From assembly GCF_003991155.1 (NCBI RefSeq), contig NZ_CP031293.1: a stretch of DNA of 64,000 nucleotides. One strand, 5' to 3'. The translations under genes were made by a program, and so were the position numbers. The notes under the pieces were generated by a model that was not told the origin of the DNA, ran no database searches, and saw only the letters and a list, made by a program, of their open reading frames with translations. The DNA comes from Escherichia coli. Lineage in GTDB: Bacteria; Pseudomonadota; Gammaproteobacteria; Enterobacterales; Enterobacteriaceae. Shown here piece after piece: positions 4,460-60,029 of this stretch; the stretch's first letter is position 1; each line of letters begins with the position of its first letter.

Positions 4460-4610
4460 GTTCGTGTCTCCTGAAAAAAAATCGTTCTGAATAAGTGTAA
4501 ACGCGCGATTGTACCATTACCAATAGCGCTTTTACTATGTTGTGACCTCGGTTCCGGGAAACAAACCTGGCCAGACATTGTTACACAACACTCCGGGTAA
4601 TGCATTCCAA

Positions 4611-4630
4611 TACTGTATATTCATTCAGGT
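4611..4630. promoter_or_regulatory. LexA (SOS) box in the ssb-uvrA divergent control region
   Basis: tactgtatattcattcaggt, a CTGT-N8-CAG match to the LexA consensus. Confidence 0.85.
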
Positions 4631-4713
4631 CAATTTGTGTCATAATTAACCGTTTGTGATCGCCGGTAGCACCATGCCACCGGGCAAAAAAGCGTTTAAT
4701 CCGGGAAAGGTGA

Positions 4714-10075: not shown

Positions 10076-10297
10076 ATTTAATAATGGTTAGATGTGCAAA
10101 AATTATTACTCCACACGAAAAAACAGGGAAAGGAATTCCAGATAATTGGGATAAACTTAACAATAAAAGAACTGACAACCTTTTATTATCCCTCACGTAA
10201 AACGATGGCATCAAAAAAATCATCTATAAAGCAAGAGTGAAAGCGACGACAGTTTAATTTCACTGCAGGCTGGGTAGCTCCAGCCTGCTTTCCTGCA

Positions 10298-11491: not shown

Positions 11492-11743
11492 GCGATGGTT
11501 CTCCAGGTTTACGGGCAGGTGGTTAAAACACAATAAACCGGAAGAAGGCGAAGATCGAGTGGATGTTCAGGGGCGAACGGCAATTAGCAACAGAGTGAGA
11601 CTCATGACAAACGTACATCCGCCAGAGGCACGACCTTCATAAGAGCATGAAAGAAAATCAACTTATTGAATTGGTAGGATTTTATTGGCCGGATAAGGCA
11701 TTCACGCCGCATCCGGCACAGACAATCAAATATTACAGAACGA

Positions 11744-40864: not shown

Positions 40865-41177
40865 AACAATTTCCCTTCATTGAATGAATGGAGATTTACC
40901 CAAAAACATTTCGGGCGGGATCGAGTATACACAACTAAAGCATGCGAATTACGGCGCGGGTAATTAGTGATGGGGTTTTAGGATAATTGGAATGAATATC
41001 AAATATAAGCTTCATCTTATATATAAATAAGATTAAAAATCAAAAAGTTAAAATAAAATCAGAAATAATTAACCTACGTATTTTCCGAAATAAACCGTGA
41101 TTAAAAATCTATTTTAGGATTAACCTCACGGTATGATTTCCGTTAAATCACAGACAAGAGGATTTATCTGATAAAAA

Positions 41178-41205
41178 ATGCCGACATAACGTCGGCATTT
41201 TTATT
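41178..41205. terminator. Rho-independent terminator downstream of pgi
   Basis: atgccgac / gtcggcat hairpin flanked by A- and T-runs. Confidence 0.8.
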
Positions 41206-41217
41206 AAGGTTATTTAA

Positions 41218-43082: not shown

Positions 43083-43104
43083 AATGTACTACCTGCGCTA
43101 GCGC

Positions 43105-43385
43105 AGGCCAGAAGAGGCGCGTTGCCCAAGTAACGGTGTTGGAGGAGCCAGTCCTGTGATAACACCTGAGGGGGTGCATCGCCGAGGTGATTGAACGGCT
43201 GGCCACGTTCATCATCGGCTACAGGGGCTGAATCCCCTGGGTTGTCACCAGAAGCGTTCGCAGTCGGGCGTTTCGCAAGTGGTGGAGCACTTCTGGGTGA
43301 AAATAGTAGCGAAGTATCGCTCTGCGCCCACCCGTCTTCCGCTCTTCCCTTGTGCCAAGGCTGAAAATGGATCCCCTGACACGAG
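43105..43385 (+). promoter_or_regulatory. lysC 5' leader containing the lysine riboswitch (L-box)
   Basis: Long structured leader before lysC containing a GAAGAGGCGC element; the overlapping antisense ORF 43067-43612 is considered spurious. Confidence 0.65.
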
Positions 43386-43391: not shown

Positions 43392-44741
43392 ATGTCTGAA
43401 ATTGTTGTCTCCAAATTTGGCGGTACCAGCGTAGCTGATTTTGACGCCATGAACCGCAGCGCTGATATTGTGCTTTCTGATGCCAACGTGCGTTTAGTTG
43501 TCCTCTCGGCTTCTGCTGGTATCACTAATCTGCTGGTCGCTTTAGCTGAAGGACTGGAACCTGGCGAGCGATTCGAAAAACTCGACGCAATCCGCAATAT
43601 CCAGTTTGCCATTCTGGAACGTCTGCGTTACCCGAACGTTATCCGTGAAGAGATTGAACGTCTGCTGGAGAACATTACTGTTCTGGCAGAAGCGGCGGCG
43701 CTGGCAACGTCTCCGGCGCTGACAGATGAACTGGTCAGCCACGGCGAGCTGATGTCGACCCTGCTGTTTGTCGAAATCCTGCGCGAACGCGATGTTCAGG
43801 CACAGTGGTTTGATGTACGTAAAGTGATGCGTACCAACGACCGATTTGGTCGTGCAGAGCCAGATGTAGCCGCGCTGGCGGAACTGGCCGCGCTGCAGCT
43901 GCTCCCACGCCTCAATGAAGGCTTAGTGATCACCCAGGGATTTATCGGTAGCGAAAATAAAGGTCGGACAACGACGCTTGGCCGTGGAGGCAGCGATTAT
44001 ACGGCAGCCTTGCTGGCGGAGGCTTTACACGCATCTCGTGTTGATATCTGGACCGACGTCCCGGGCATCTACACCACCGATCCACGCGTGGTTTCCGCAG
44101 CAAAACGCATTGATGAAATCGCGTTTGCCGAAGCGGCAGAGATGGCAACTTTTGGTGCAAAAGTACTGCATCCGGCAACGTTGCTACCCGCAGTACGCAG
44201 CGATATCCCGGTCTTTGTCGGCTCCAGCAAAGACCCACGCGCAGGTGGTACGCTGGTGTGCAATAAAACTGAAAATCCGCCGCTGTTTCGCGCGCTGGCG
44301 CTTCGTCGCAATCAGACTCTGCTCACTTTGCACAGCCTGAATATGCTGCATTCTCGCGGTTTCCTCGCGGAAGTTTTCGGCATCCTCGCGCGGCATAATA
44401 TTTCGGTAGACTTAATCACCACGTCAGAAGTGAGCGTGGCATTAACCCTTGATACCACCGGTTCAACCTCCACTGGCGATACCTTGCTGACGCAATCTCT
44501 GCTGATGGAGCTGTCTGCACTATGCCGGGTAGAAGTGGAGGAAGGTCTGGCGCTGGTCGCGTTGATTGGCAATGACCTGTCAAAAGCCTGCGGCGTAGGC
44601 AAAGAGGTATTCGGCGTACTGGAACCGTTCAACATTCGCATGATTTGTTACGGCGCATCCAGCCATAACCTGTGCTTCCTGGTGCCCGGCGAAGATGCCG
44701 AGCAGGTGGTGCAGAAGCTGCATTTTAATTTGTTTGAGTAA
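43392..44741 (+). CDS. lysC: Lysine-sensitive aspartokinase III (LysC)
   Basis: 449 aa; N-terminal kinase motif VVSKFGGTSVAD; C-terminal ACT domains. Confidence 0.97.
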   Translation: MSEIVVSKFGGTSVADFDAMNRSADIVLSDANVRLVVLSASAGITNLLVALAEGLEPGERFEKLDAIRNIQFAILERLRYPNVIREEIERLLENITVLAEAAALATSPALTDELVSHGELMSTLLFVEILRERDVQAQWFDVRKVMRTNDRFGRAEPDVAALAELAALQLLPRLNEGLVITQGFIGSENKGRTTTLGRGGSDYTAALLAEALHASRVDIWTDVPGIYTTDPRVVSAAKRIDEIAFAEAAEMATFGAKVLHPATLLPAVRSDIPVFVGSSKDPRAGGTLVCNKTENPPLFRALALRRNQTLLTLHSLNMLHSRGFLAEVFGILARHNISVDLITTSEVSVALTLDTTGSTSTGDTLLTQSLLMELSALCRVEVEEGLALVALIGNDLSKACGVGKEVFGVLEPFNIRMICYGASSHNLCFLVPGEDAEQVVQKLHFNLFE

Positions 44742-44795: not shown

Positions 44796-45143
44796 TTACG
44801 AATTACTGCGGCGCTGTTGCTTTTCCGCATGTACGCGTTTCACAATCTTATAAATCCATTGCAGCGTCAGATTATATTTCTTCGCTAATTCGGCGTAGTT
44901 GCGCCCATCGCACTCGCTATAGATTTGGTAGTCACGCTCCGATGCTCGTCCGGAGATCCCCTTAGGGAAATAAATGCTTTGTCCGCCCCAGTTACGCATC
45001 ATTCGGTCGGCAATGGCAAAGCCCACATTTTCTGCCGATGAACTGTCGAGATTGATGCTTTCAATCAGAACTTGCGATGCATGAAAAGCCAGGTCGTTAA
45101 TGATCTCCGGTGTCCGGGCCATCTCTTTTGATTTTCGTATCAT
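44796..45143 (-). CDS. Mor/C-like transcriptional activator (Mu middle/late activator family)
   Basis: 115 aa with C-terminal HTH (ELAKKYNLTLQWIYKIVKR), resembling the Mor/C family; transcribed divergently from the lysis/tail genes. Confidence 0.7.
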   Translation of the reverse strand: MIRKSKEMARTPEIINDLAFHASQVLIESINLDSSSAENVGFAIADRMMRNWGGQSIYFPKGISGRASERDYQIYSECDGRNYAELAKKYNLTLQWIYKIVKRVHAEKQQRRSNS

Positions 45144-45364
45144 TTTTCATCTCCATATATCTTGCATCCTGAATAAGACCCGATGCGTGTAAAACCACGG
45201 ATATACGCTAAGCAGTTGTCATTACTGCTACTCAATACATTCAACAAACAAATAAACAATTAACAAAAATATAAATTTTTAATATTAATGAACGCCATAA
45301 ATTCATGAAATAGATATATTGTTTGCGTTATGTTTCTTGTCAACAGGTGTATCATTTTACACGA

Positions 45365-45384
45365 TACTGTATACACATACAGTA
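45365..45384. promoter_or_regulatory. LexA-box-like palindrome in the island control region
   Basis: tactgtatacacatacagta, a perfect CTGT-N8-ACAG with TA-rich spacer; flanked by the inverted repeat ttttacac / gtgtaaaa. Confidence 0.6.
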
Positions 45385-45680
45385 TTATTTTTACTTGTAG
45401 TGTAAAAAGATCGTTTCCCTCACAGTCGCTGACTTTCTTAAACAAACTTTAAAAATCAAATAACTACTGACTATTCCTACGATTCACCATCATCTTTTCC
45501 CTGCATAATGACGCGCTTATTCGCGAGGTCACCTTTTGCTCTTTAATTGCTGAGTGGATTTATTAGCGGGCATGTTCATTTATAGAGAATCTATTTTTTA
45601 AACTTATTTATTAAAGCTTTTTTCATTCTTCACTGGCGGGTTCTGGCGACACTAAACGCTCACTTATCAGGAGATACCGT

Positions 45681-45968
45681 ATGAAAAAAGTCACTCTTCC
45701 CCGGCTTTCCGGTTGGCTGGTCGCTTCCGTCGCGCTGTTTGTCGTGATCGGCTGGACCTCTTCAGCACAAATCCCGGTCGTCATTTATAAACTAAGCCTG
45801 GTTTCGCTTTCCGCGGTGCTGGGATACTGGCTCGATCGCAGTTTGTTCCCCTGGGCACGGCCTGACTCTTTTTGCCCCTGGAAGGAACCGCGTTGCTGCG
45901 CGGCGGCAATGATTCGCCGGGCTATCATCGTTGCTGCCGTCTGCCTTTCCGTCGCGTTAGGGCTATAG
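45681..45968 (+). CDS. Small membrane protein, putative holin
   Basis: 95 aa with 2-3 predicted TM segments; AGGAGA RBS; first gene of the lysis cassette. Confidence 0.5.
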   Translation: MKKVTLPRLSGWLVASVALFVVIGWTSSAQIPVVIYKLSLVSLSAVLGYWLDRSLFPWARPDSFCPWKEPRCCAAAMIRRAIIVAAVCLSVALGL

Positions 45969-45970
45969 TG

Positions 45971-46576
45971 ATGTGGCTGAAATATATCGCGTCTATGATT
46001 ATTTTCGTTCTTTTCCCACTCAACGCCTCTGAACCGCCGAGAGCCTCTCTGGCATGGCGAAACGAACTAATTCGTACAGCTCGAGAAGTCTGGGGGCTGA
46101 ATGCCCCAGTGGCCGACTTTGCCGGGCAATTACACCAGGAGTCCGCCTGGCAGCCAATGGTACGTTCCCCCGTTGGCGCACAAGGTATGGCGCAATTTAT
46201 GCCTGCTACAGCGACATGGATAAGCCAGTTGTATCCACAATTGCGTGAAAACAAACCGTATAACCCAACCTGGGCGATTCGCGCGCTGGTGCAATATGAC
46301 CAGCATTTGTGGAAAAACATCTCTGCGAAAAATGATTGTCAGCGTATGGCGTTTACCCTAAGCGCCTATAACGGCGGTCAGGGGTGGGTTAACCGGGATA
46401 AAAAACTGGCTGCATCCAAAGGGTTAGATGCCACTAGCTGGTTTGGTCATGTTGAGCAAGTCAACGCCGGGCGCAGCGCCACGAACTGGCGAGAAAATCG
46501 TCGCTATCCAAAGATGATCCTCTATCAACATGCCGCCCGCTATTTACTCTGGGGACAGGCAAGCTGTCTTCATTAA
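45971..46576 (+). CDS. Lytic transglycosylase-type endolysin with N-terminal signal/SAR segment
   Basis: ATG at 45971; hydrophobic N-terminus MWLKYIASMIIFVLFPLNA; SLT-domain catalytic region (LHQESAWQP, AYNGG). Confidence 0.75.
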   Translation: MWLKYIASMIIFVLFPLNASEPPRASLAWRNELIRTAREVWGLNAPVADFAGQLHQESAWQPMVRSPVGAQGMAQFMPATATWISQLYPQLRENKPYNPTWAIRALVQYDQHLWKNISAKNDCQRMAFTLSAYNGGQGWVNRDKKLAASKGLDATSWFGHVEQVNAGRSATNWRENRRYPKMILYQHAARYLLWGQASCLH

Positions 46577-46588
46577 TCAGAGGGGCCG

Positions 46589-46903
46589 ATGAAACTCAGT
46601 ATCGATTTTTGGGAAGTGATCTCCCTTATGCTTTCCTTCGTTGGATTAATGTTTGCTGCCGGAAAACTGCTGTTAGCACAAATTGAAAAACGACTTAATG
46701 AGCGTTTTGAATCTCTGGAAAACGCGCGCCGGGAATCAGAAACAAGTTGGTCGAAACTGGAAAGAGAATTTCTCGAATTTCGTGCCGAGCTTCCGCTGCA
46801 TTATGTCCGCAGAGAAGATTATCTTCGTGGGCAAGCAGTATTAGAAGCGAAGCTGGATGCCTTATATAGCAAAATCGAGCTGTTACAACGTGGCAGTTAT
46901 TGA
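46589..46903 (+). CDS. Spanin-like protein (N-terminal TM plus coiled coil)
   Basis: 104 aa; TM helix then charged coiled-coil region; follows the endolysin. Confidence 0.5.
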   Translation: MKLSIDFWEVISLMLSFVGLMFAAGKLLLAQIEKRLNERFESLENARRESETSWSKLEREFLEFRAELPLHYVRREDYLRGQAVLEAKLDALYSKIELLQRGSY

Positions 46904-46904
46904 A

Positions 46905-46940
46905 AAATCCCCACCCTTATGTAAGGGTGGGGATTTTTTT
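46905..46940 (+). terminator. Strong rho-independent terminator after the lysis cassette
   Basis: aaatccccaccctta / taagggtggggattt 15-bp stem followed by a T-run. Confidence 0.85.
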
Positions 46941-47047
46941 AACCATTCAATTTTTTCTCTAAATCACATTAAAAGATTCTTCACCTTCGCTGCTTCAGAA
47001 TACATTTCAACGATAACGAAGTGAGCGGTAATTAAGGTACAGCCTAT

Positions 47048-47503
47048 ATGGAAATTTTATCTGTAATGAATTCTGTTGTGACCAGATTACGTGAACACAA
47101 CTCCGAAATGGATATATTTATTTCATCTAAGGATGCCCAGAAATATATTCCACAGACACAACGAGTTGCAGTGATTATTAATTATAGCGGTTCTGTCTTT
47201 GCTACGCCCGAAAGCAGTAATGCCATCGTGCAACAGCAAATACTCCGCTTAACCGCCACCGTTATTGTTGGCAAAAATTGTGATGCATTAAACGCACTTG
47301 ATCACATACGCAGCGCATTGGGTGGCCTTCAGCTTCCTGATTGCGATCGTCTTCTTTGGCTTGAAAAAGAAATTAATACGGGTGAGAGCGGCGGTTTCTG
47401 CCGCTACATCCTGGAAATGGCGACCAGCTCGCTATTTATCGCTGAACAGGAAAGCACGGATCTTCCCCTGCTTACGGAAGTTAACTACGAGGAAACTGAA
47501 TGA
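47048..47503 (+). CDS. Tail completion/terminator-like protein (Mu gp37-like)
   Basis: 151 aa immediately upstream of the sheath and tube genes; family call made by sequence recall. Confidence 0.5.
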   Translation: MEILSVMNSVVTRLREHNSEMDIFISSKDAQKYIPQTQRVAVIINYSGSVFATPESSNAIVQQQILRLTATVIVGKNCDALNALDHIRSALGGLQLPDCDRLLWLEKEINTGESGGFCRYILEMATSSLFIAEQESTDLPLLTEVNYEETE

Positions 47504-47697
47504 AATACATCTACAACGGCCCAGCAAGCGGCGTCACCCTTGCCGATGGACAAGAAATCTTATTGTGGCCGAACAGTGAAATTGATCTGCCAGAAGACAA
47601 CGAGTGGGTCATGACCATGATTGCCCGCAATCATCTGACTCCTGTCATCACTCAGGAAGAACAAAATAACGTAGAGGAAATTGTACATGGCAGCTAA
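47500..47697 (+). CDS. Small tail-module protein (Mu gp38-like)
   Basis: 65 aa; ATGA start-stop overlap with the upstream gene. Confidence 0.45.
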   Translation: MKYIYNGPASGVTLADGQEILLWPNSEIDLPEDNEWVMTMIARNHLTPVITQEEQNNVEEIVHGS

Positions 47698-49111
47698 TTA
47701 TCTGCACGGTGTAGAAACTATTGAAATTGAAACCGGCCCGCGTCCGGTTAAAGCGGTAAAATCCGCCGTCATCGCTTTAATCGGTACAGCCCCCTGCGGT
47801 CCGGTAAATAAACCAACATTATGCCTTTCTGAAAGCGATGCTGCGCAGTTTGGCTCGACTCAGGCTAACTTTACGATCCCACAGGCACTGAAGGCAATTT
47901 ATGACCACGGTGCCGGTACGGTGGTGGTGATTAACGTGCTGGATCCGGCAAAACATGGCTCCAACATCAGCAATGAGAGTATCACTTTTGATGCTAACAA
48001 CCAGGCGAAGCTCGCTCACCGCAATGTGCGTAACGTGGTACTAAAGCCCTCTTCATCAAATTCATCAACCTTTAACACCGCAGCATTTAGCGTAGATGAA
48101 CAAACAGGCATAATTACCCGTAAAGGAGCCGACATTCCTCCTGGTGCGAAAGTTTGTGCCTATTATTCCTGGTGCGACCCTACAAAGGTCACCGCAGCCG
48201 ATATTATCGGTACCGTAAATACCGCAGGCGACCGCACGGGGATGAAACTGCTACAGGACACCTATAACCTGTATGGTTTCTACGCCAAAATCCTGCTTGC
48301 TCCCGTGTTCTGTACGCAAAAATCAGTAACTACAGAGCTGATTGCACAAGCGGAAAAACTTGGTGCGATTACCTACATTGATGCCCCGATTGGGACGACA
48401 TTCCAGCAGGTATTGGCAGGACGCGGTTCGCAAGGGGCTATCAACTTCAACACCAGCTCTGATCGTGCGCGTTTATGTTACCCACACGTCAAAGTTTACG
48501 ATGGCATCACTAACCAGGAAGTTCTCGAACCGCTCTCTTCGCGCGCTGCCGGGCTACGTGCCAAAGTAGACCTCGAAAAAGGTTTCTGGTGGAGCAACTC
48601 AAACCAAGAAATTCAGGGTATTACCGGTATTGAACGTTCGCTTTCCGCAATGATTGATGATCCACAAAGCGAAGTGAATCAGCTAAACGAAAACGGCATT
48701 ACCACTATTTTCAATAGTTACGGCTCTGGTCTGCGCTTGTGGGGCAACCGCACTGCAGCGTGGCCTACCGTGACCCATATGCGTAACTTTGAAAACGTCC
48801 GCCGGACAGGCGATGTAATTAATGAGTCAATCCGTTATTTCAGTCAGCAGTATATTGATATGCCGATTAATCAGGCGCTGATTGATGCCCTGACCGAATC
48901 GGTAAATACCTGGGGCCGTAAGCTGATTGCCGACGGCGCACTGCTTGGCTTTGAATGCTGGTACGATCCGGCGCGAAATTCACCGACTGAACTCAGCGCT
49001 GGGCATTTATTGCTGAGCTATAAATTCACCCCACCGCCGCCGCTGGAACGTCTGACGTTTGAAACTGAAATTACTTCTGAATATTTAGTCTCTCTGGAGA
49101 GCAATAGCTAA
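47687..49111 (+). CDS. Contractile tail sheath protein
   Basis: About 474 aa from the ATG at 47687 (track start 47681 is TTG); GAGGAAA RBS; followed by the tube gene. Confidence 0.85.
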   Translation: MAANYLHGVETIEIETGPRPVKAVKSAVIALIGTAPCGPVNKPTLCLSESDAAQFGSTQANFTIPQALKAIYDHGAGTVVVINVLDPAKHGSNISNESITFDANNQAKLAHRNVRNVVLKPSSSNSSTFNTAAFSVDEQTGIITRKGADIPPGAKVCAYYSWCDPTKVTAADIIGTVNTAGDRTGMKLLQDTYNLYGFYAKILLAPVFCTQKSVTTELIAQAEKLGAITYIDAPIGTTFQQVLAGRGSQGAINFNTSSDRARLCYPHVKVYDGITNQEVLEPLSSRAAGLRAKVDLEKGFWWSNSNQEIQGITGIERSLSAMIDDPQSEVNQLNENGITTIFNSYGSGLRLWGNRTAAWPTVTHMRNFENVRRTGDVINESIRYFSQQYIDMPINQALIDALTESVNTWGRKLIADGALLGFECWYDPARNSPTELSAGHLLLSYKFTPPPPLERLTFETEITSEYLVSLESNS

Positions 49112-49635
49112 TGGCTGGAAAAATTCAAATTAACCGTATTACCAACGCCAATATTTATCTCGATGGTAATAACCTTTTAGGTCGTGCAACCGAAATTAAA
49201 TTGCCGGATGTCAGTTTAATTATGCAGGAGCATAAAGCACTGGGCATGGTGGGTAAAATCGAACTCCCGGCGGGTTTCGATAAACTGGAGGGCGAAATTA
49301 AATGGAACTCCTTCTATCAGGACGTAATGCGTAAAACGGCAAACCCGTGGCAGGCGGTTGCATTACAGTGCCGCTCCAGTATTGATTGCTATAACTCCCA
49401 GGGGAAAGCGAATCAATTAGCGCTAGTGACACATTTAACCGTGATGTTTAAAAAGAATCCACTGGGCACATTTAAACAGAATGAAAACCCGGAATTCAGC
49501 AGCGCCTTTGGTTGCACTTATATTAAACAAGTAGTTGATGGTGAAACGCTGCTTGAACTTGATTATATGGCCAATATTTTCCGGGTTAATGGTGTGGATC
49601 AATTAAGTACCTATCGCAATAACATCGGTGGCTAA
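49111..49635 (+). CDS. Tail tube protein (P2 FII-like)
   Basis: 174 aa; ATG overlaps the sheath stop; resembles P2 FII-type tube proteins. Confidence 0.8.
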   Translation: MAGKIQINRITNANIYLDGNNLLGRATEIKLPDVSLIMQEHKALGMVGKIELPAGFDKLEGEIKWNSFYQDVMRKTANPWQAVALQCRSSIDCYNSQGKANQLALVTHLTVMFKKNPLGTFKQNENPEFSSAFGCTYIKQVVDGETLLELDYMANIFRVNGVDQLSTYRNNIGG

Positions 49636-49639
49636 GTTA

Positions 49640-49660
49640 TTCGGGGCTACGGCCCCGAAC
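49640..49660 (+). other. Intra-operon hairpin after the tube gene (possible attenuator)
   Basis: ttcggggc / gccccgaa stem with no following T-run. Confidence 0.4.
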
Positions 49661-49685
49661 TTTGCAAAATAAATAAGGACACAAA

Positions 49686-50003
49686 ATGAAAGAACATTAT
49701 ATCTTACAGTTCCCGTTTACTTCAGCGGCGGGAGACGTAATTAACACTCTGCAATTACGTCGCCTGAAAGTAAAAGATATGCGCAACGCGCGCCGGATCA
49801 GCGAAAAACCTGAAGAGTGGGATGAACCGCTAATGGCGGCAATGACCGGACTGGTGCCAGAAGATTTAGCTGAAATGGATTTGCTGGATTACCAGGCATT
49901 GCAGAAACGATTTCAATCCATGCTTAGCGTGGCTACAGAATCCGCCACTGTTATGGCAAGCGATGGCGTTACTGGCGAGATGGTTTCGCTTTCCACCCAG
50001 TGA
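49686..50003 (+). CDS. Tail assembly chaperone (gpE/gp41-like)
   Basis: 105-aa acidic protein directly upstream of the tape measure gene. Confidence 0.65.
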   Translation: MKEHYILQFPFTSAAGDVINTLQLRRLKVKDMRNARRISEKPEEWDEPLMAAMTGLVPEDLAEMDLLDYQALQKRFQSMLSVATESATVMASDGVTGEMVSLSTQ

Positions 50004-50192
50004 GATAGACGCCCTTACCGTCGATGACTTTAGCAACTGGCTGGATGAAGCCAGCGCCCAAATAAAAATCGAATATGACTCGCAGACCTGATGTCTGCGA
50101 GTTTCCCAAGCCCGTCAGGTTTATTTCTTCCCTGCCCCTTTTTTTAGAAAAATAACCAGCGGGCCATTATCAATATTTAAAGAGAAACAATT

Positions 50193-52568
50193 TTGGCCAA
50201 CGATATTATTACCCAGCTTCAGGCGCGTAATGAGACGTTGACGCAGGCAATAGCCCGTTACGGCTCACTCAACGCCAGAACATTGTTAACTCTCTCTACT
50301 CAGCAGGCGACAGTTATCAAACTAACGCAGCAGCTTGCCGATTCCGCTCTCCGCCTGGAGGAAAATAGCCGCAGCCGCGCTAATCTGATGGAGAAAACCC
50401 AAACATTTGCCGGGCAATTTAGCAAAGTATTCAATGTTGAAGCCCCCGACTGGAAGTTGCCGTATGAGTTTCAGGACAACATGGTCAATATGGCGACCAA
50501 AGGTGGGATGAATGCTACAACCCGCGAGACGCTCAGCCTTAATCTGCGCGACTGGAGCATGGATTTTAACCAGCAGCAGACCACCTTACAGAACGCAGCC
50601 CAAACGCTGATCGAAGGCAATTTGTCGTCGATACAGGATCTCAACCGTTATATGCCGGAGATCGCCAAAGCTGCCACCGCCACGCGCGAAAGTGCTGAAA
50701 CATGGGCGAATGCCGCGCTCGCAACCCATGATCGACTGAATATTGCCCCGGAAAATTTCCACGCCGCGCAAAACATGATGTACGGCATTAGCAAAAGCGG
50801 TGGGCCTGCCATTGCTGAACAAACGCAGTGGATAGAGAAATTTGCAGGTAAAACCGGCGCTCAGGGTCTGGAAGGTATGGCTGAACTGACCGCCACCATG
50901 CAGATCGCCATGAAAAACGGGGCCAGCGCCAGTGCGGCGGCGGAGAATTTCGACCACTTTCTGCAAACCACCTTTTCGAAAAAAACCGATTACTGGTTCG
51001 TCAGCCAGGGCGTTGATCTGCAAGGCTCTCTGCTTGAGCATCAGCAAAACGGTATGGGTGTTAGCGAAGCCATGACTCATATCGTGCAAATGCAGCTTGA
51101 GAAGATGAATCCGGCGATCCTCGACACCTTCAAACGCACCATGCAGATCGAAGATTTATCTGCCCGCAGCAATGCGCTGCAATCGATGGTGACGCAGTTT
51201 AATCTGGGGGAAATGTTCGGCGATGCGCAAACAGTGGAATTCCTGGCCCCTATGCTGGCGAATATGGAGGAATATCGCCAGTTAAAAGCCTCTGCCATGC
51301 AAGCCACCAGCAAGAATCTGATTGATGCCGACTTTTCTGCGCAAATGGCCTCGCCCATTGAACAGACTAAAGCGTTACAGCTGGCGTTAAATGATTTATG
51401 GCTCAGCATTGGCTTGCAATTAATGCCGCTGATTGGCGAGCTGGCACAAAGCCTTACGCCGGTTATTCGTCAGTTCAGCGCCTGGCTACGTGAGCACCCG
51501 ACACTGGTGCAAAACATCGCGAAAATCGTCGGGGCGATTTGGCTGTTTAACGGTGCGCTGAATGTTTTAAAGCTGGGCGCGAACCTCATCACCTCGCCGT
51601 TTATTCGTCTGGTCGATATCTTCCTGAAAGTCAAGGCAAGTCTGGCGCTCACAGGCGGGGCAAGTAAGATGCTATCAGCGGTTAAGTCATTGGGTGGCGG
51701 CGCAAAATGGCTAACGCAACTGCTTGGTCGTGGCCTGATTGGAACATTGAAACTGGTTGGTCGGACCGTTCTCTCACTAGGCCGGGTGCTACTGATGAAT
51801 CCCATTGGTCTGGTCATCACTGCGATTGCGGGCGCTGCTTATCTGATTTATCGCAACTGGGAGCCTATCTCCAGGTTCTTTTCGACCATCTGGCAACGTA
51901 TCACCACGGCCTTTGACGGCGGCATTGCAGGAATTTGTCGGTTGATTCTCGACTGGTCACCGCTGGAGTTGTTCTATAGCGCCTTTTCCAGTGTGATGAA
52001 TTGGTTTGGTGTCGAGATGCCTGCAAGTTTTAGCGAGTTCGGCAGCAATCTTCTGGGCAGTCTGGTTGACGGCATAATGAATGCCTTCCCCGCTCTGAAA
52101 GGCATTATTGATCAGGTAAAAAACGCCATCCCAGACTGGCTAAAAACCACGATGGGTATTAGTACAGAAGGATCGGCTACAGCTATTACAAGCACGACTA
52201 ATACCGCATCCGTCTCCCCCGCGACCGTTGTTCCAGGCGTTGCCGGTGCGATTTTAACGCCGCCGGTGGGCAAACAACTCGCGCCATCCGGCAAAACGGC
52301 TACGCCGTCATCGGCGCCAGCGGCAAAAAATACAGCCGCCAAACCCGTATCTGCCTCTTTACCTGGTAAATCCGTAACCAAAGCGGCGACGCTACCTTCC
52401 CGTTCCTCAGGAAAAGTTCAGGTGAATTTTTCGCCACAAATTACCGTGCAGGGTAACGGACAAAACACCACTAAAGAGATTCAGAACGTGTTGACGATGA
52501 GTAAACGCGAACTGGAAAGAATGATTAACGATGTAATGGCGCAGCAGCAGCGCCGGGGGTATGCCTAA
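50193..52568 (+). CDS. Tail tape measure protein
   Basis: 791 aa, largely alpha-helical, hydrophobic central segments, Ala/Pro/Ser/Thr-rich C-terminal region; track start is TTG. Confidence 0.85.
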   Translation: MANDIITQLQARNETLTQAIARYGSLNARTLLTLSTQQATVIKLTQQLADSALRLEENSRSRANLMEKTQTFAGQFSKVFNVEAPDWKLPYEFQDNMVNMATKGGMNATTRETLSLNLRDWSMDFNQQQTTLQNAAQTLIEGNLSSIQDLNRYMPEIAKAATATRESAETWANAALATHDRLNIAPENFHAAQNMMYGISKSGGPAIAEQTQWIEKFAGKTGAQGLEGMAELTATMQIAMKNGASASAAAENFDHFLQTTFSKKTDYWFVSQGVDLQGSLLEHQQNGMGVSEAMTHIVQMQLEKMNPAILDTFKRTMQIEDLSARSNALQSMVTQFNLGEMFGDAQTVEFLAPMLANMEEYRQLKASAMQATSKNLIDADFSAQMASPIEQTKALQLALNDLWLSIGLQLMPLIGELAQSLTPVIRQFSAWLREHPTLVQNIAKIVGAIWLFNGALNVLKLGANLITSPFIRLVDIFLKVKASLALTGGASKMLSAVKSLGGGAKWLTQLLGRGLIGTLKLVGRTVLSLGRVLLMNPIGLVITAIAGAAYLIYRNWEPISRFFSTIWQRITTAFDGGIAGICRLILDWSPLELFYSAFSSVMNWFGVEMPASFSEFGSNLLGSLVDGIMNAFPALKGIIDQVKNAIPDWLKTTMGISTEGSATAITSTTNTASVSPATVVPGVAGAILTPPVGKQLAPSGKTATPSSAPAAKNTAAKPVSASLPGKSVTKAATLPSRSSGKVQVNFSPQITVQGNGQNTTKEIQNVLTMSKRELERMINDVMAQQQRRGYA

Positions 52569-53521
52569 TGTATGCCGTTTTAGGAGAGATTGAATTTAAG
52601 GTTGTCACATTCTGGGACGGCTTTAAAAGCACAATGGGCGTGGATTACGCCACACATGCCCGTATAGAAGGCAAACCCGGCGTGCAGTTTATTGGCGATA
52701 AGCTGGATATGCTGGCGCTGGAATTTTCCCTGCACAGCCAGTTTTGCCAGCCCACAACAGAGCTGAACCGACTGCGTGAAGCCATGCTTGCTCACAAGGC
52801 GATGGCACTGGTATTTGGCAATGGCGATTATCGCGGCTGGTTTGTGATTACGGAGCTAACCGCCACCCACCAGCACACCGATCCCTGGGGCAATGTGATT
52901 GCCCAAAACGGAACGATGTCGCTCCAGGAGTACACCGGCGATCCTAAAAATCCACTTTTACCTCCGGCGATTACCACCCAGGAGCCCAACATCGAGGAAA
53001 AGGCGAGCGATTTTCCCGACAAGGTGGAGTCCTGGTTTGATCAGATATTAAACGCCATTGAAGAAGGTATGCGTAAGGCCAAAGAGATGCTGGATGAACT
53101 GACACAATCCATTGAAGATATTAAAAAAACGGTGGCAAAAGTGAAAGCAATGATTAAAGAGGCCAAAGCGTTAAAAGAAAAGTGTGAAAAGATAATTACG
53201 TCATTGAAAAAGACAATCGACGCCATCGAAACCCTGTTTAAACAGCCAATGGATCTGCAAACGCTGGCAGGCCTACCAAAAGCGTTGTCGGCGCAGATTA
53301 AAGCTTTACTGGGTAACATGCCAGGTATCCGGGACTGCGCCAATGACGCCAGTACGCTGGTTGACCATGCTCAGGCGCTTTTCGACGACATTACCAGCGA
53401 CATCGCCGAAGCGACGTTCGATAAAGCCACGTCGTTGGTTGAGCAGGCACGTACAACGGTACAACAAACCACTCCCGCAGTGAGCCAGCTTGCTGCCGTA
53501 ACCATTACCAGGAGCTGGTAA
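52568..53521 (+). CDS. Tail protein, gpU / DNA-circulation N-terminal-domain-like, with coiled-coil C-terminal extension
   Basis: N-terminal 140 aa resemble P2 gpU / Mu gpN N-domain; C-terminal half is Lys/Glu-rich coiled coil. Confidence 0.6.
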   Translation: MYAVLGEIEFKVVTFWDGFKSTMGVDYATHARIEGKPGVQFIGDKLDMLALEFSLHSQFCQPTTELNRLREAMLAHKAMALVFGNGDYRGWFVITELTATHQHTDPWGNVIAQNGTMSLQEYTGDPKNPLLPPAITTQEPNIEEKASDFPDKVESWFDQILNAIEEGMRKAKEMLDELTQSIEDIKKTVAKVKAMIKEAKALKEKCEKIITSLKKTIDAIETLFKQPMDLQTLAGLPKALSAQIKALLGNMPGIRDCANDASTLVDHAQALFDDITSDIAEATFDKATSLVEQARTTVQQTTPAVSQLAAVTITRSW

Positions 53522-53730
53522 TGCGATACCTTGAACATATCACCACCGATGGCGAACGCTGGGATAACCTGGCATGGCATTACTACGGTGATGCGCTGGC
53601 TTATGAACGCATAATCGCCGCCAATCCACATGTAGCCATTTACCCGGTACTGCCTTCCGGTATTCAGCTCATTATTCCGGTCATTTCCGTTAATAAAACC
53701 TTATCGGAGATCCCACCATGGCTGAGATGA
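53521..53730 (+). CDS. Tail protein X-like (LysM-like)
   Basis: 69 aa with the DxWDxLAxxYYGD...ANP pattern typical of P2 gpX. Confidence 0.65.
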   Translation: MRYLEHITTDGERWDNLAWHYYGDALAYERIIAANPHVAIYPVLPSGIQLIIPVISVNKTLSEIPPWLR

Positions 53731-54758
53731 GCGTAACTGGTGGCGTCTTTGCCACACTCACGCCCATTTTTACCCTCTGGTATGGGCATAAAGATATCAC
53801 TTATGACATCACACCCTATGTCACCAGCATCAGTTACCACGACAGCATCAAAAACGAGTCGGATACCATCGCAATTACACTGGATGACACAGATGGACGC
53901 TGGATAAAAGAGTGGTATCCCGGCAAAGGCGATACGCTGGCGCTGCATATAGGTTATCAGGGGGAAAAGCTGCTCGATTGTGGCCAGTATATTATTGATA
54001 AAATTGATATTTCAGCGCCACCTTCCACGGTAAATATTGATGGCATCGCCACTTCCGTCAATCAGGCGCTGCGCACCCGTAACAGCCAGGGCTTTGAAGA
54101 AACGACGCTTTCGGCGATCGCCAGCCGTATTGCCCAAACGCACGGTCTGAAACTGGTGGGCAAAATCGAGTCGCTCACCATCGACCGGGTAACGCAGTAT
54201 GGTGAAACCGATGTCGGATTTCTCAAACGTCTGGCCAGTGAATATGGTTATGCCGTAAAAGTGACGACAAAAGAGCTGATTTTTTCACATTTACCCACGC
54301 TGCGCTGCCTGACGCCTGTGAAAAAGATCGATCGCAAAGAGGTTTCTCATTTTACCTTCAAAGACACCATTAACCGGATCTACAAGAACGCCACCGTACA
54401 GCATCAAAATAGTAAGAAAAAAGAACTGGTTATCTACACTCACAACAGCCAGCAAAAACCATCTGTCCGTGGAGTCGGCACTAGTGCCGACACGCTAAAA
54501 CTGAACAGTCGGGCGACGGACGTTGGCGCAGCACAGGCAAAGGCTAACGCTGCACTCGACAGCCACAACGAATATCAGCAAACCGGAACGCTCACAATGA
54601 TGGGCTGCCCGGAACTGACGGCGGGCAATAAAATTGAACTGACCGATTTTGGCGTGATTTCCGGTCAGTGGCTGATTGATAAATCTACTCACAGTTTTGT
54701 GCGCAGCGGCTATACCACTGAAATCGACGTGTCACGCGGGCCAGCGACCAGCCAGTAA
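53718..54758 (+). CDS. Tail/baseplate hub protein (P2 gpD / Mu gpP-like)
   Basis: 346 aa following gpU-like and gpX-like genes. Confidence 0.65.
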   Translation: MAEMSVTGGVFATLTPIFTLWYGHKDITYDITPYVTSISYHDSIKNESDTIAITLDDTDGRWIKEWYPGKGDTLALHIGYQGEKLLDCGQYIIDKIDISAPPSTVNIDGIATSVNQALRTRNSQGFEETTLSAIASRIAQTHGLKLVGKIESLTIDRVTQYGETDVGFLKRLASEYGYAVKVTTKELIFSHLPTLRCLTPVKKIDRKEVSHFTFKDTINRIYKNATVQHQNSKKKELVIYTHNSQQKPSVRGVGTSADTLKLNSRATDVGAAQAKANAALDSHNEYQQTGTLTMMGCPELTAGNKIELTDFGVISGQWLIDKSTHSFVRSGYTTEIDVSRGPATSQ

Positions 54759-54767
54759 GGAGGAAAT

Positions 54768-55469
54768 ATGAAAGGAGTAACCCGTCAAACGGGGATTATC
54801 AGCGATATTGACGAAACCAGTGTTCGGGTACGGGTCACTCTACCAGAGTGTGACAATCTGAAGAGCAACTGGCTTGCGGTACTTCAACGCAATTCCCAGG
54901 ACAATAAAGACTACTGGCTACCGGATATGGGCGAGCAAGTGGAAGTTCTGCTGGACGATAACGGTGAAGATGGCGTGGTGCTGGGTGCCGTTTATTCTAC
55001 GGTTGACACCGCGCCTGTAGCCTCGCGCGACAAACGTTACGTCCAGTTTTCTGATGGCGCAGCGTTTGAATATGACCGCAGCACGCACCAGCTGACGATT
55101 AACGGCGGTATCGAGAAAATCGTGATTGAGGTTATCGACAGCACCCGCCTGACATCGCCCAACGTTGAGATTAAAGCCCAACACGTCACCGTGACTTCCG
55201 ATACCGTCGATGTTAAAGCGACCGATGTCAGCATCGACGCCACTAAGGTCGAGGTTAAAGCAGCAGCAGTGACGGTAGATGCGCCCATGAGCACCTTTAC
55301 TGGCAACGTCACGGTAATGAAAAAACTCACCTGGCTTGGCGGGATGGCAGGAAGTGGAGGCATCGGTAACGCAGCCACGATAACCGGCAATGTCAACGTG
55401 ATCGGCAACGTTCAGGCCAGCGGCGCATTGCAGGACAGCGGTGGCAACTCCAACCACCATTCACACTGA
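54768..55469 (+). CDS. Baseplate central spike protein (gpV-like)
   Basis: 233 aa; beta-rich repeats (VEIKAQHVTVTSDTVDVKATDVSIDATKVEVKAAAVTVDA); C-terminal HHSH. Confidence 0.75.
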   Translation: MKGVTRQTGIISDIDETSVRVRVTLPECDNLKSNWLAVLQRNSQDNKDYWLPDMGEQVEVLLDDNGEDGVVLGAVYSTVDTAPVASRDKRYVQFSDGAAFEYDRSTHQLTINGGIEKIVIEVIDSTRLTSPNVEIKAQHVTVTSDTVDVKATDVSIDATKVEVKAAAVTVDAPMSTFTGNVTVMKKLTWLGGMAGSGGIGNAATITGNVNVIGNVQASGALQDSGGNSNHHSH

Positions 55470-55567
55470 CTTTTAACCCGCCTGATGGCGGGTTTTCTCT
55501 TTTTAATCAATCAGTTTTCTAAATCGCTTTAATATCTCCACAGCCCGTTCAGGGCGAAAATACCCTC

Positions 55568-55927
55568 ATGAACACAAAAACACGCCCCTCAACGCTGCAC
55601 TGGCAACCGGCCTTGCAGCGGCCTGAAGAATACGTCTGCGGGCTGGATGATATTCACCAGGCAATACACATCATTCTGCGTACACCGCGCGGCAGTGATC
55701 CCCACAGACCGCTGTTTGGCAGCAACTTGTGGCACTACATCGATTACCCCATCGAGCGGGCTATCCCGCATGTGGTACGGGAGTCGGTGGAAGCCATCCG
55801 CCAGTGGGAACCGCGCTGTCGGTTGCTGAAGGTGACACCAGTAATCGACGGCGAACATCTGACGTTACGTGTGCAATGGCGCGCCGCTGACGGCGTTATC
55901 AACTCAACGGAGGTGTTATGGCGATAG
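55568..55927 (+). CDS. Baseplate wedge protein (GPW/gp25 lysozyme-like family)
   Basis: 119 aa with family-typical GxDxxxAIHIIL...GSxPxRPxFGS pattern. Confidence 0.75.
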   Translation: MNTKTRPSTLHWQPALQRPEEYVCGLDDIHQAIHIILRTPRGSDPHRPLFGSNLWHYIDYPIERAIPHVVRESVEAIRQWEPRCRLLKVTPVIDGEHLTLRVQWRAADGVINSTEVLWR

Positions 55928-57033
55928 CCGAACCCAATTTTATTGACCGCGATCCTGCGCAAATTACCAGTGAGATGATTGCGCAATACGAAGATGCCAG
56001 TGGTAAAAAACTCTATCCGGCACAGGCTGAGCGGTTGCTCATCGACCTGTTTGCCTATCGTGAAAACCTTGTACGCATCGCCATTCAGGAAGCGGCGAAA
56101 CAAAACCTGGTCGCGTATTCCCGCGCGCCAATGCTGGATTATTTAGGGGAGTTGGTGGGAGTTCACCGTTTGCCTGCGCAGCCTGCAAAAACGACGTTGC
56201 AGTTTTCGGTCGTTAGTGCGTATCCCGGCAATATCCTGATTCCCCAGGGGACGCGGGCCAGTGCCTCTGATAGCGTGATGTTCGCCACCGATGAAGATGT
56301 TCTGCTTCCGGCCAGGAGTTTGCATATCGCCGTTCCTGCCACCAGCCTCGCAGCAGGTGAACAGGGTAACGGCTGGCAGCCTGCACAAATTAGCGCACTG
56401 GTCGACAGGATTGGTCATTATGACATCAACGTAACCAACCTGACTGCGTCAACGGGCGGCTGCGGTGAAGAGAGCGATGACGCATTGCGCCAGCGTATCC
56501 AACTGGCACCAGAAAGCTTTAGTAATGCGGGCAGCTATGGTGCCTACCGCTTTCATACGCTTTCTGTTAGCCAGTCGATTATTGACGTTGCAGTACTGGG
56601 GCCGGACGAGGGATTGCCAGAAGGCTGCGTGGAGATCTACCCGCTAACCCTGAATGGTCTACCCGGCACGGAGTTGCTGGCGCAGATTGAACAAGAAGTC
56701 AGCAAGGAGAAAAAACGACCGCTGACCGACAAAGTGAGTGCGAAATGCGCTCTTCGAGTGCCGTATGAGATCCGTGCGCAGCTAATGCTGTTTACCACCG
56801 CCGATCAGGAGACAACGCTGGCTGCGGCGCGTAAAGCGATTAGCCTCTGGACGCAACAGCGGCAGAAACATCTGGGGCAGGACATTGTGCCAAACCAGAT
56901 AATCAAAGTGTTACAGGTCGATGGCGTCTATGACGTTGCGCTGAATATGCCTACAAAACGTATTTTGCAGGCGCATGAATGGGCGGAATGCACTGCAATA
57001 GACGTCACGATTGCCGGAGTCAGCGATGGATAA
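55918..57033 (+). CDS. Baseplate J-like protein
   Basis: 371 aa; start overlaps the gpW-like stop. Confidence 0.75.
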   Translation: MAIAEPNFIDRDPAQITSEMIAQYEDASGKKLYPAQAERLLIDLFAYRENLVRIAIQEAAKQNLVAYSRAPMLDYLGELVGVHRLPAQPAKTTLQFSVVSAYPGNILIPQGTRASASDSVMFATDEDVLLPARSLHIAVPATSLAAGEQGNGWQPAQISALVDRIGHYDINVTNLTASTGGCGEESDDALRQRIQLAPESFSNAGSYGAYRFHTLSVSQSIIDVAVLGPDEGLPEGCVEIYPLTLNGLPGTELLAQIEQEVSKEKKRPLTDKVSAKCALRVPYEIRAQLMLFTTADQETTLAAARKAISLWTQQRQKHLGQDIVPNQIIKVLQVDGVYDVALNMPTKRILQAHEWAECTAIDVTIAGVSDG

Positions 57034-57742
57034 ATTGCTGCCACCGCCGCCGCTTGCCAGCGATGAGCGTTTTTCGATTCTGGCAAACATCGCCGCCGAG
57101 CGTTTTGCCCAACTCGATCTGACGGCGTTGATGGTTTATCTGGTCGACCTGGTTGATGCTTCGGCATTACCAGCCCTTGCAGAACAATTTCACGTTCAGG
57201 GGCTGGAAGGTTGGTTATTTACCACCGATGAGCGGGAGAAACGCGAGTTAATTAAACAAGCCATTGAACTGCATAAATATAAAGGAACAATTTGGGCGGT
57301 ACGGCGAGTGCTGGAAATACTTTCCTTACCCGGAACTATTTCAGAATGGTTTGAATATGGGGGAAGGGCTTATTTTTTTAAGGTAAATATTACACTAGAG
57401 GAAAAAGGATTAAATGAAGATGAATTCAATGCACTTATCACATTAATTCATGAATATAAAAATGTTCGTTCAAAGCTGGAAAGCATTGTTATTTGGCTTA
57501 TTAATCGAAGCCCAATACCAGTTATTGGCAGCGCCATGCAAGGAGGGGAAGTCATTACAGTATTGCCTCCTGTTGCAGAAAGCCTCAGCCAGTCATCAGG
57601 AATATTTTTAGCGACGGGTTATTGTGTGGAGGAATATATCCAACTACTACCTTATCAACCCGATCGCCTTACACAATCCCAACCGATGAAGGTCGGCACA
57701 GGATACTGGAGCACCGAAATTATGTCTGTATATCCGGAGTAA
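57026..57742 (+). CDS. Tail protein I-like (baseplate wedge)
   Basis: ATG at 57026 overlapping the J stop (track start 57011 is TTG); about 238 aa. Confidence 0.65.
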
Positions 57743-57744
57743 TA

Positions 57745-59325
57745 ATGGCAAGTGAATTTTTTACAATATTAACTGCTGCAGGCAAAGCCAAAATTGCCTC
57801 AGCACTGGCCGAGCAAAAACAGATCCGTCTGCAAACTATGGTAGTTGGCGACGGTAATGGTAAATATATCGAACCGACAGAAAGTCAGACCAAAGTAGTC
57901 CATGAGGTCTGGCGTGGTCAGCTCAATACATTAAAAATTGCGCCAGATAATCCGGCCTGGGTTATCGCAGAAGCGATTATTCCCGAACAAGTCGGAGGCT
58001 GGTATGTACGCGAAGTTGGGTTACTGGATACCGACGGCACGCTGGTCGCTATTGGTAAATTCCCGGAAACCTATAAGCCACGATTACCTGCGGGGGCCAG
58101 TAAGCAAATCGTTATACGCGCGGTCATGGAAGTCACCAATGCAGACGCGGTGACGCTTTTGATCGACCCTTCAGTCGTTGTGGCAACCAGGGAATATGTC
58201 GATGACGCGTTGAAAACACATCAGCAATCACGAAATCATCCTGATGCGACGCTGACACAAAAAGGTTTTACGCAGCTCAGTAATGCAACTAATAGCGATG
58301 ATGAGACTAAAGCAGCCACGCCAAAAGCGGTAAAAACGGCATATGACCTGGCAAATAGCAAAGCCGCAACCAGTCATACTCATGCCTGGAATCAGATTAC
58401 TGGTATCCCTGACGGTACACTGACGCAGAAAGGAGTCGTTAAACTTAACAACACAACAAATAGCACCAGTACAACGGAAGCTGCAACGCCAAGTGCGGTT
58501 AAAGCAGCGATGGACAAGGCTATTGCTGCGGCGCCGTCCAGCCATACCCATGCCTGGGGGCAAATAACAGGTATCCCCGACGGTACGCTGACACAAAAAG
58601 GGGTCGTGAAACTTAATAATGCGACCAACAGCACCAGTACGACGGAAGCTGCGACGCCGAACGCGGTTAAGGCAGCGATGGATAAGGCTATTGCTGCGGA
58701 AAGCTGTCCTGTTGGGATGCCTATTCCCTGGCCATCTGATTCTGTACCTTCAGGCTACGCTCTGATGACAGGTCAGACATTTAATAAAACCTCCTATCCC
58801 AAACTGGCAATTGCATATCCATCTGGTGTTATTCCTGATATGCGCGGATGGATAATTAAAGGAAAACCATCCAGTGGGCGCGCTATATTATCTACTGAAC
58901 TGGATGGAGTTAAATCACATAACCATACGGGCAGTATTTCGAGTACTGATTTAGGGACGAAAACCACACCCCTCACAGACTTGGGGACTAAAACTGCATC
59001 ATCATTTAACCATGGAAATAAAACAACAAGTTCATCTGGCTCAGGCTCGGCAACTGCAACAGTAAGAACAGGGACATCTTCACCAGAGGGCCAAGGCGAC
59101 TGGACATCATATGGCCCTGGTACCGGATCATCTTTGGCAATTAATGTTCCATCACACGTTCATAGTGTTACAATTGGTTCCCATTCGCACACTGTTGCGC
59201 TCGGCACCCATTCGCATTCAATTGCACTTGGTTCCCATAACCACTCCCTAACCATTAATAATACCGGCAGCACCGAAAACACCGTCAAAAATATCGCATT
59301 CAACTATATTGTGAGGCTAGCATGA
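57745..59325 (+). CDS. Tail fiber protein with tandem fiber repeats and His-rich C-terminal tip
   Basis: ATG at 57745 in frame with the track ORF; three tandem 56-aa repeats; C-terminal HxH motifs (SHSHT, THSHS, SHNHS) and [11 protein letters not shown] end. Confidence 0.85.
58246..58700 (+). repeat. Tandem 168-bp direct repeats inside the tail fiber gene
   Basis: Repeat units begin at about 58246, 58414 and 58582; units 2 and 3 are near-identical at the DNA level. Confidence 0.8.
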
Positions 59326-60029
59326 ATACTTTTACCTTTTCTGATGAAGCTCAAATACTAACTGTATATAATTTTTCACAAGACTCCCAAGAATATATCG
59401 GTGAGTCTGATGCATACATTGCACCTAATACAGGCTTGCCAAATTATTGCACATTAATTTCACCTCCCGAAAAGGCTCCTGGTTTTACTCCAGTGTGGGA
59501 GAATGAAACATGGAGACTTATTGAAGATCATCGAGGCCAAACTGTTTATAACAAAGTTGATGGTAGCCAGCTTATTATTCAAGAATTGGGCCAATTACCT
59601 GAAAATGTAACAGTCATTTCCCCGACAGGTTCTTTTGAACGTTGGGATGGTGAAAAATGGCAACCATCTATAACCGATGCTAAAGAGGCGAAATACTCTG
59701 CAATCAAAAATCAACGCGATGCCATCACAACCGATTACATCATCATCAACAACCATCACTTCCACAGTGATACAAATAGCCGTATCCAACAGCTTTCACT
59801 CACAAAAATGGGAGCGGAGAAAAAAATTCCGCCAGGGTTAATGTGGAAAACTAAAAATAATGGTCTGATTGAGTTAACCAACGAAATCGCTGCCCAGTTT
59901 GAATCGGTCACCATGGATCACGATATGCGCTTGTTCGCAAACGCCCAGCGTCATATCGCGGCGGTGGAAGCACTGGACGATATTCAGGCGGTGCTCGACT
60001 ACGATTATTCAACAGGCTGGCAACCATGA
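59322..60029 (+). CDS. Tail fiber assembly protein (chaperone)
   Basis: 235 aa; ATGA overlap with the fiber stop. Confidence 0.7.

Follow-up and report, generated by a model that had tools for sequence, protein, structure and literature searches.

In the distal tip of phage T4 gp37, the HxH motifs of three chains hold seven iron ions in the interior of the needle (PMC6116203, PMC11705849), and the receptor contacts and host-range mutations lie in the head, at residues 938-955 (PMC5221442). Tips of the gp37 type with a gp38-like chaperone gene downstream, and with a divergence centred on gp37 residues 932-965, make up the 'T4- and lambda-based RBP family' of receptor-binding proteins (RBP) (PMC9659904). 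The present analysis concerned a tail fibre gene located in a 64,000-nucleotide stretch of an Escherichia coli chromosome (contig NZ_CP031293.1, assembly GCF_003991155.1), hereafter called the window, which also contained lysC with its lysine riboswitch, pgi, mal genes, lexA, yjbD and rluF. The gene probably encodes the receptor-binding tail fibre of a headless contractile-tail and lysis cluster of the BcepMu/P2 type. A minority of E. coli and other Escherichia species carry this cluster at a fixed position in the chromosome, flanked by lysC and yjbD.

Modular organization of the tail fibre

The interval that a preliminary description had assigned to the fibre corresponded exactly to one intact coding sequence (CDS), both as an open reading frame (ORF) and in the RefSeq annotation (Table 1). 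The product of 526 amino acids (aa) was identified as WP_000135569.1, annotated as 'phage tail protein', and the ATG start agreed with position 1 of the Pfam model as well as with RefSeq. The gene was 100% identical in IAI39, CE10 and more than 40 other complete genomes. The NCBIfam search gave no family for the fibre, and consensus matches to intragenic promoter and terminator signals did not exceed the shuffled expectation. By homology, the fibre is a mosaic of three known modules, namely an attachment domain of the P2 gpH type, a shaft of 56-residue repeats and a tip of the T4 gp37 type. Each of these modules falls in a described family, and no new principle is added by them.

The tip was clearly related to a known structure. 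Residues 317-526 matched PDB 2XGF, the distal tip of T4 gp37 (chain residues 25-242), with a phmmer E value of 1.8e-63 and about 54-58% identity; on this alignment, the last 210 aa of the fibre are a genuine homologue of the gp37 distal tip. The collar, the last 30 residues and five HxH motifs were invariant between the two proteins. The run of successive HxH motifs reported earlier near the C-terminus was confirmed at aa 471, 480, 489 and 498 with a spacing of 9 aa, and a further motif was located at aa 392. Together they retained five of the seven T4 iron sites in register (883, 966, 980, 989 and 998 in T4, equivalent to aa 392, 471, 480, 489 and 498). The same tip type was matched in 508 phage records using tblastn, including T-even gp37, lambdoid Stf and P2-like phages such as Peduovirus P24A7b.

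The preliminary description had also placed a His-rich receptor-binding tip at the C-terminus and likened it to the tips of both T-even and P2-type fibres. The first of these statements had to be revised, as the histidines mapped to the iron sites of the gp37 needle and the head mapped to aa ~441-464. This mapping argues that the HxH motifs are structural, being predicted by homology to gp37 to form buried iron sites of the needle, and that the likely receptor surface is the hairpin turn of the mid-segment (aa ~441-464) rather than the C-terminus. The second statement stood for the T-even fibres, given the 2XGF match, and fell for the P2 fibre, whose gpH tip was dissimilar.

At the other end of the protein, aa 24-264 shared 49% identity with P2 gpH (BLASTP). 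The three tandem repeats of about 168 bp described previously were borne out in an exact register of 168 nt (56 aa), with three Pfam matches to PF03406 (Phage_fiber_2) at aa 169-208, 225-264 and 281-318 (E values of 2.8e-20, 9e-15 and 4.4e-16, respectively). The third unit was cut to 42 of its 56 residues before the collar domain begins. The linkers of units 1 and 2 each carried an HxH motif, at aa 211 and 267, respectively, which had gone unremarked before. The last two units had been called nearly identical at the DNA level, which was an overstatement: their identity was 83% over 162 nt (TRF and repeat search) and 85% over the 126-nt core, and the longest exact in-register run was 16 nt. A total of 17 of the 42 shared codons differed, 15 of them synonymously and 2 non-synonymously, and 40 of the 42 residues were identical. 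Units 2 and 3 were nearly identical as protein and diverged as DNA. The synonymous excess together with the DNA divergence therefore points to an old duplication with the protein under purifying selection.

Table 1 Features of the tail fibre gene and of the surrounding cluster (window coordinates)
Feature	Position	Strand	Basis or remark
Tail fibre CDS	57745..59325	+	Intact ORF, 526 codons + stop; PHROG 295 tail fiber, E 3e-213
N-terminal baseplate-attachment domain, aa 1-149, PF12571 (Phage_tail_fib, P2 gpH type)	57745..58191	+	Pfam E 3.4e-59
Shaft repeat unit 1, aa 165-220	58237..58404	+	PF03406 core and 16-aa linker with HxH (SHTHAW)
Shaft repeat unit 2, aa 221-276	58405..58572	+	PF03406 core and HxH linker
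Shaft repeat unit 3, aa 277-318	58573..58698	+	PF03406 core only; joins collar directly
Collar domain PF07484, aa 319-369 = T4 gp37 811-861	58699..58851	+	Pfam E 3.2e-10 (aa 324-370); 2XGF/gp37 alignment
Needle, descending strand, aa 370-440, HxH at aa 392-394	58852..59064	+	gp37 alignment
Hypervariable specificity cassette, aa ~405-490	58957..59214	+	Three discrete alleles in E. coli
Predicted head (receptor-contact) domain, aa 441-464 = T4 gp37 934-959	59065..59136	+	Homology mapping only
Needle, ascending strand, aa 465-526, HxH at aa 471, 480, 489, 498, invariant C-terminus	59137..59322	+	gp37 alignment
Headless tail and lysis cluster	44796..60481		ORFs; RefSeq annotation of identical IAI39 cluster
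Perfect LexA (SOS) box TACTGTATACACATACAGTA	45365..45384		In divergent regulatory gap
gpI-type baseplate protein, immediately upstream of fibre	57011..57742	+	PHROG 48; annotated 'phage tail protein I'
Tail fibre assembly chaperone, 235 aa, gp38/Tfa-type N-terminal part and DUF4376	59322..60029	+	Pfam Caudo_TAP, DUF4376
151-aa ORF (orfX), last gene of operon	60026..60481	+	PHROG 1128; after chaperone in every Escherichia locus examined
GC-rich terminator-like hairpin between operon and convergent nucleotidyltransferase gene	60486..60508		10 pairs, 8 G-C

Variation of the fibre within Escherichia

The number of repeat units was surveyed in 5,426 complete E. coli genomes, of which 148 carried the window-type fibre. 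The 611-nt repeat region gave a single full-length match in all 148 carriers, indicating three units throughout. All 148 passed the 80% coverage mark, below which the loss of one 168-nt unit would fall, and none of the E. coli matches listed was split, each being one ungapped piece. Within E. coli, the unit number was fixed at three in these 148 genomes. The fibre gene of CUVET19-1704 was inactivated by a 1-nt deletion in the repeat region.

Across the genus, the closest homologues differed in length by exact multiples of 56 aa, the 470-aa form having 2 units, the 526- and 536-aa forms 3 and the 582-aa form of E. albertii 4. Among homologues with other tips, the 498-aa protein of E. fergusonii had 5 units and the 554-aa protein of E. 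albertii had 6. The genes with 2, 4 and 5 units were located in the orthologous cluster at the same site, in the order gpI, fibre, chaperone, orfX, nucleotidyltransferase, slipin, yjbD and rluF. Units 3 and 4 were 98% identical at the DNA level in E. fergusonii, with an exact run of 107 nt, and 97% identical in E. albertii, with an exact run of 58 nt. In the 2-unit allele, the second unit consisted of a unit-2-like core joined to the collar and resembled a fusion of units 2 and 3. The orthologues with 2-6 units and the 97-98% identity of the extra units indicate that in-register gain and loss of units has occurred. The earlier suggestion that the unit number can change by recombination is thus sustained across Escherichia, but not for the window allele, which is a poor substrate and has three units in 148 of 148 genomes. 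In sum, the homologues showed neither an invariant copy number, having 2-6 units, nor a tip without known relatives, the 2XGF match being evident.

The tip varied in a different way. E. coli fibres of 526, 536 and 546 aa were at least 95% identical outside the cassette given in Table 1 and only 10-25% identical inside it. The cassette spanned the distal needle and the head, and the tips of the 526-, 536- and 546-aa alleles had 5, 6 and 7 HxH motifs, respectively. The three cassette alleles accounted for 59, 83 and 6 genomes, together all 148 carriers, and the chaperone hardly differed from one tip allele to another. The cluster's regulatory gap was detected in 196 genomes as against 148 with the window-type fibre, and some genomes therefore hold the cluster with another fibre. 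At the same locus in E. coli MS14386 (30019-32148 of its stretch), the fibre was 608 aa long, had PF03406 repeats in four copies and a glycine-rich tip with GFVKISW at its end, and was followed by a 98-aa ORF and then by an IS1 that truncated the DUF4376 chaperone. In the fibre of E. fergusonii (10001-11497 of its stretch), the last 64 aa were 59% identical to the extreme C-terminus of P2 gpH. The fibre gene of NRZ96052a (4454-5289 of its stretch) was inactivated by an IS1 in the collar region.

A search for an invertible segment revealed only two short imperfect inverted repeats of 19-24 nt, with no recombinase annotated and a single chaperone gene. An invertible fibre system, such as the Mu G segment, the P1 C segment or the carotovoricin type, was rejected, since there was neither an invertase nor flanking inverted repeats.

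Tail and lysis cluster

The cluster began with a Mor-family activator gene on the minus strand, followed by holin, lytic transglycosylase, membrane protein, Mu-gp37-family protein (unrelated to T4 gp37) and sheath genes. Downstream of the sheath were the tube, an assembly chaperone, the tape measure, gpU/X/D/V/W/J/I-type proteins, the fibre, its chaperone and the 151-aa ORF. The cluster was flanked by lysC (43392-44741) on one side and by nucleotidyltransferase, slipin and yjbD genes on the other. The contractile-tail set was complete, with sheath, tube, tape measure, baseplate, fibre and chaperone encoded by intact ORFs, and all of the approximately 20 tail and lysis ORFs were intact in the window and in most of the genomes sampled. 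The annotation between lysC and yjbD contained no capsid or head, portal, terminase, replication, transposase or integration gene; one ORF of the tail module (47048-47503, Mu-gp37 family) matched a PHROG labelled 'portal protein'. The sheath was 71-74% identical to that of BcepMu-type phages. The same chromosomal site and gene order were shared by E. albertii, E. fergusonii and a metagenomic Escherichia-like contig.

The perfect LexA box lay within the 538 bp that separate the Mor-family gene from the holin gene, and overlapped a sigma70-like promoter on the plus strand (-35 at 45356, -10 at 45378-45383). Apart from this box, a perfect CTGT-N8-ACAG occurred in the window only as the operator of lexA itself, at 21538. 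A lysis cassette (holin, lytic transglycosylase and membrane protein) was annotated, and the Mor-family activator and the LexA box are candidate elements of a stress-inducible regulation.

Neighbouring genes and other features

The fibre chaperone was 25% identical to T4 gp38 (E 2e-12) and 38% identical to the Tfa of Peduovirus P24A7b (E 3e-36). In NCBIfam it had a single match, far below the cutoff, and nothing meaningful was found for it among PDB sequences. P2 gpG was discarded as a relative of the chaperone (E 0.12). No match was obtained for orfX in Pfam, NCBIfam or PADLOC; among PDB sequences it had a weak match only, to the cysteine peptidase 3KW0 (E 0.4), and it could be a permuted papain-like enzyme.

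Genes for an RlaP-type nucleotidyltransferase and a slipin (Band_7) on the minus strand (60496-62420) separated the tail cluster from yjbD. Both accompanied the cluster in E. albertii and E. fergusonii, and PADLOC gave no match for either of them. Rfam matches at the gathering threshold were sraL (518-658), naRNA4 (29228-29298), STnc430 (41061-41209) and the lysC lysine riboswitch (43104-43300), all of which are ordinary for E. coli and unrelated to the fibre. A low-GC stretch (35.5%, 26001-28000) lay over an ORF of 526 aa on the minus strand (26340-27920) and was possibly acquired horizontally.

Discussion

Taken together, the module assignments suggest how the fibre would work. A fibre trimer would dock on the gpI/gpJ baseplate wedge by aa 1-149, and the number of 56-aa units in aa 165-318 would set the length of the shaft. 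In the tip (aa 319-526), the collar would lead into a needle whose chain descends and then returns, with a small head where it turns, and the five HxH motifs kept in register are predicted metal-binding sites on the threefold axis. Contact with the receptor, which by analogy with T4 may be an outer-membrane porin and/or the lipopolysaccharide (LPS) core, would be made by the head, and the gp38/Tfa-type chaperone would aid trimerisation of the tip. The family of T4 gp37/lambda Stf-type tips is typified by an interdigitated homotrimer that has Fe(II) on its axis and binds OmpC and/or LPS. Target specificity would vary mainly by exchange of a cassette of ~70-85 aa that spans the distal needle and the head, or by a change of the entire tip. 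The shaft would become longer or shorter by the in-register gain or loss of 56-aa units, as seen between species and not within E. coli.

The gene content fits an SOS-induced R-type tailocin, and we infer that function from it. A more specific proposal is offered tentatively, as its probability falls clearly short of even: the cluster may be an undescribed SOS-controlled R-type tailocin of Escherichia at the lysC-yjbD site, which would form killing particles upon SOS induction and whose spectrum would be set by a few discrete gp37-type head cassettes, of which E. coli has three, by exchange of the entire tip (P2-H-like or glycine-rich in other lineages) and by shaft length (2-6 units). If this is true, the locus would be a ready-made natural toolkit for the retargeting of tailocins against E. 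coli. Should the cluster prove to be an active tailocin in E. coli lineages that include IAI39 and CE10, the pattern of killing among these strains would be predictable from the three cassette alleles, and the conserved flanks would ease re-engineering of the tip. As it stands, the locus is a clean natural example of one conserved scaffold at one site in which three routes of fibre change (cassette, whole tip and unit number) can be read from genomes. The chief interest lies outside the fibre, in whether the Escherichia cluster is an active tailocin not yet characterised. The 'tailocin' reported from ST131 (PMC9205054) was considered as this cluster and set aside, as it belongs to a different, P2-like prophage.

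Several observations weigh against a functional fibre of this design in an SOS-controlled tailocin. The LexA box was lacking in IAI39, where its site was disrupted by the insertion of a ClbS/DfsB gene and ISEc53 between the Mor-family gene and the holin gene. The searchable literature held no report of this cluster as a tailocin, a particle producer or a killer. Decay does occur, as the fibre gene had an IS1 insertion or a frameshift in some strains. In the tip of the window allele, the sites equivalent to T4 915 and 929 were lost. An AlphaFold 2 (AF2) monomer model of the full fibre, built on an alignment of 23 sequences, had a mean predicted local distance difference test (pLDDT) score of only 47.6; it was confident (pLDDT 70-86) in the N-terminal domain only, with the shaft and tip below 50. 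The low values can be attributed to the modelling of a monomer where an interdigitated trimer is expected. The model was uninformative for the shaft and tip, and the structural reading of these parts is therefore one of sequence homology alone.

The cluster could instead be the decaying remnant of a BcepMu-like prophage, with the fibre an unexpressed or unassembled relic whose variation was inherited from phage ancestors and not kept for bacterial competition. Its presence in only 148-196 of 5,426 complete E. coli genomes, the IS1 or ISEc53 insertions and the one frameshift in some strains, and the lack of published activity in the searchable literature are what such a remnant would show. However, it would hardly be expected to retain approximately 20 undamaged tail and lysis ORFs, as seen in the window and most sampled genomes, nor its locus and gene order in E. 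albertii, E. fergusonii and the metagenomic Escherichia-like contig, and the strong synonymous excess in the repeats and the perfect LexA box in the promoter gap speak against it as well. The three cassette alleles within near-identical flanks also follow the pattern of diversifying exchange known from carotovoricin (PMC13195805). This explanation is considered unlikely. An extracellular contractile injection system directed against eukaryotic cells (Afp/PVC-like) rather than a bacteriocin would likewise account for a headless contractile-tail cluster, and for the unexplained conserved 151-aa ORF after the chaperone. It is nevertheless highly improbable, in view of a tip of the T4 gp37/lambda Stf type, which is used on enterobacterial outer membranes, of the phage lysis cassette next to tail genes of the BcepMu/P2 type, and of an annotation with no toxin cargo, AAA+ ATPase or Afp-type genes.

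The repeats raise a separate alternative, in which the array of this allele is frozen on observable time scales, the units are a stable spacer and specificity does not depend on shaft length. In E. coli, RecA usually requires roughly 20-30 nt of identity for efficient recombination. The longest exact run shared by units 2 and 3 (at most 16 nt, with 15 synonymous differences) falls below this need and so counts in favour of a frozen array, as do the three units in all 148 E. coli genomes, in which each listed match was ungapped and single. Against it are the orthologous alleles with 2, 4, 5 and 6 units, the 2-unit allele resembling a unit 2/unit 3 fusion, and units 3-4 of E. fergusonii and E. 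albertii, which share 97-98% identity and contain exact runs of 107 and 58 nt, respectively. On this evidence the frozen array is rated as close to evenly balanced, with the doubt slightly the heavier.

Comparison with known systems

The last 210 aa of the fibre aligned end to end with T4 gp37 (2XGF), lambda Stf and ORF6 of Citrobacter phage PhiNP (PMC9659904), and the T4- and lambda-based RBP family shared with the window both the head-centred divergence and the gp38/Tfa-type chaperone gene directly downstream. T4 gp37 differed in having seven HxH sites as against five in the window allele (six and seven in the sister alleles), in a head sequence unrelated to that of the window fibre, and in its length of 1,026 aa, whereas the window tip sits on a short P2-type fibre of 526 aa. 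The window chaperone had an additional C-terminal DUF4376 compared with the chaperones of the T4/lambda RBP family. The likeness to P2 gpH was confined to the N-terminal domain and the first two PF03406 repeats, and to the gene position after gpI in both. In P2 gpH, however, there were two repeats 44 aa apart, without the 12-aa SHTHAW...GIP linker. The P2 gpH tip was rejected as a relative of the window tip, as BLASTP gave no significant match beyond query aa 264.

BcepMu-type (Mu-like) phages shared with the cluster the Mor-family activator, the Mu-gp37-family protein, the sheath-first order and the holin with lytic transglycosylase; they differed in their transposase, head, portal and terminase genes, which were not annotated between lysC and yjbD. 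The carotovoricin of Pectobacterium (PMC13195805), a tailocin and the closest parallel in concept, is likewise a headless contractile-tail cluster at one site across a genus, and its fibre locus is far more variable than the remainder and recombines. The putative Escherichia tailocin differed from it in varying by cassette swap, whole-tip swap and repeat number, with no invertase or inverted repeats. The fibre of the R-type pyocin (PA0620; PMC6116203) had no detectable similarity to the window fibre in the PDB sequence search, and its tip is a foot of lectin fold, not a needle and head of the gp37 type. The two are nonetheless alike in plan, the pyocin fibre being trimeric, with a shaft built of repeats that have been proposed to tune its length and with a buried HxH iron site.

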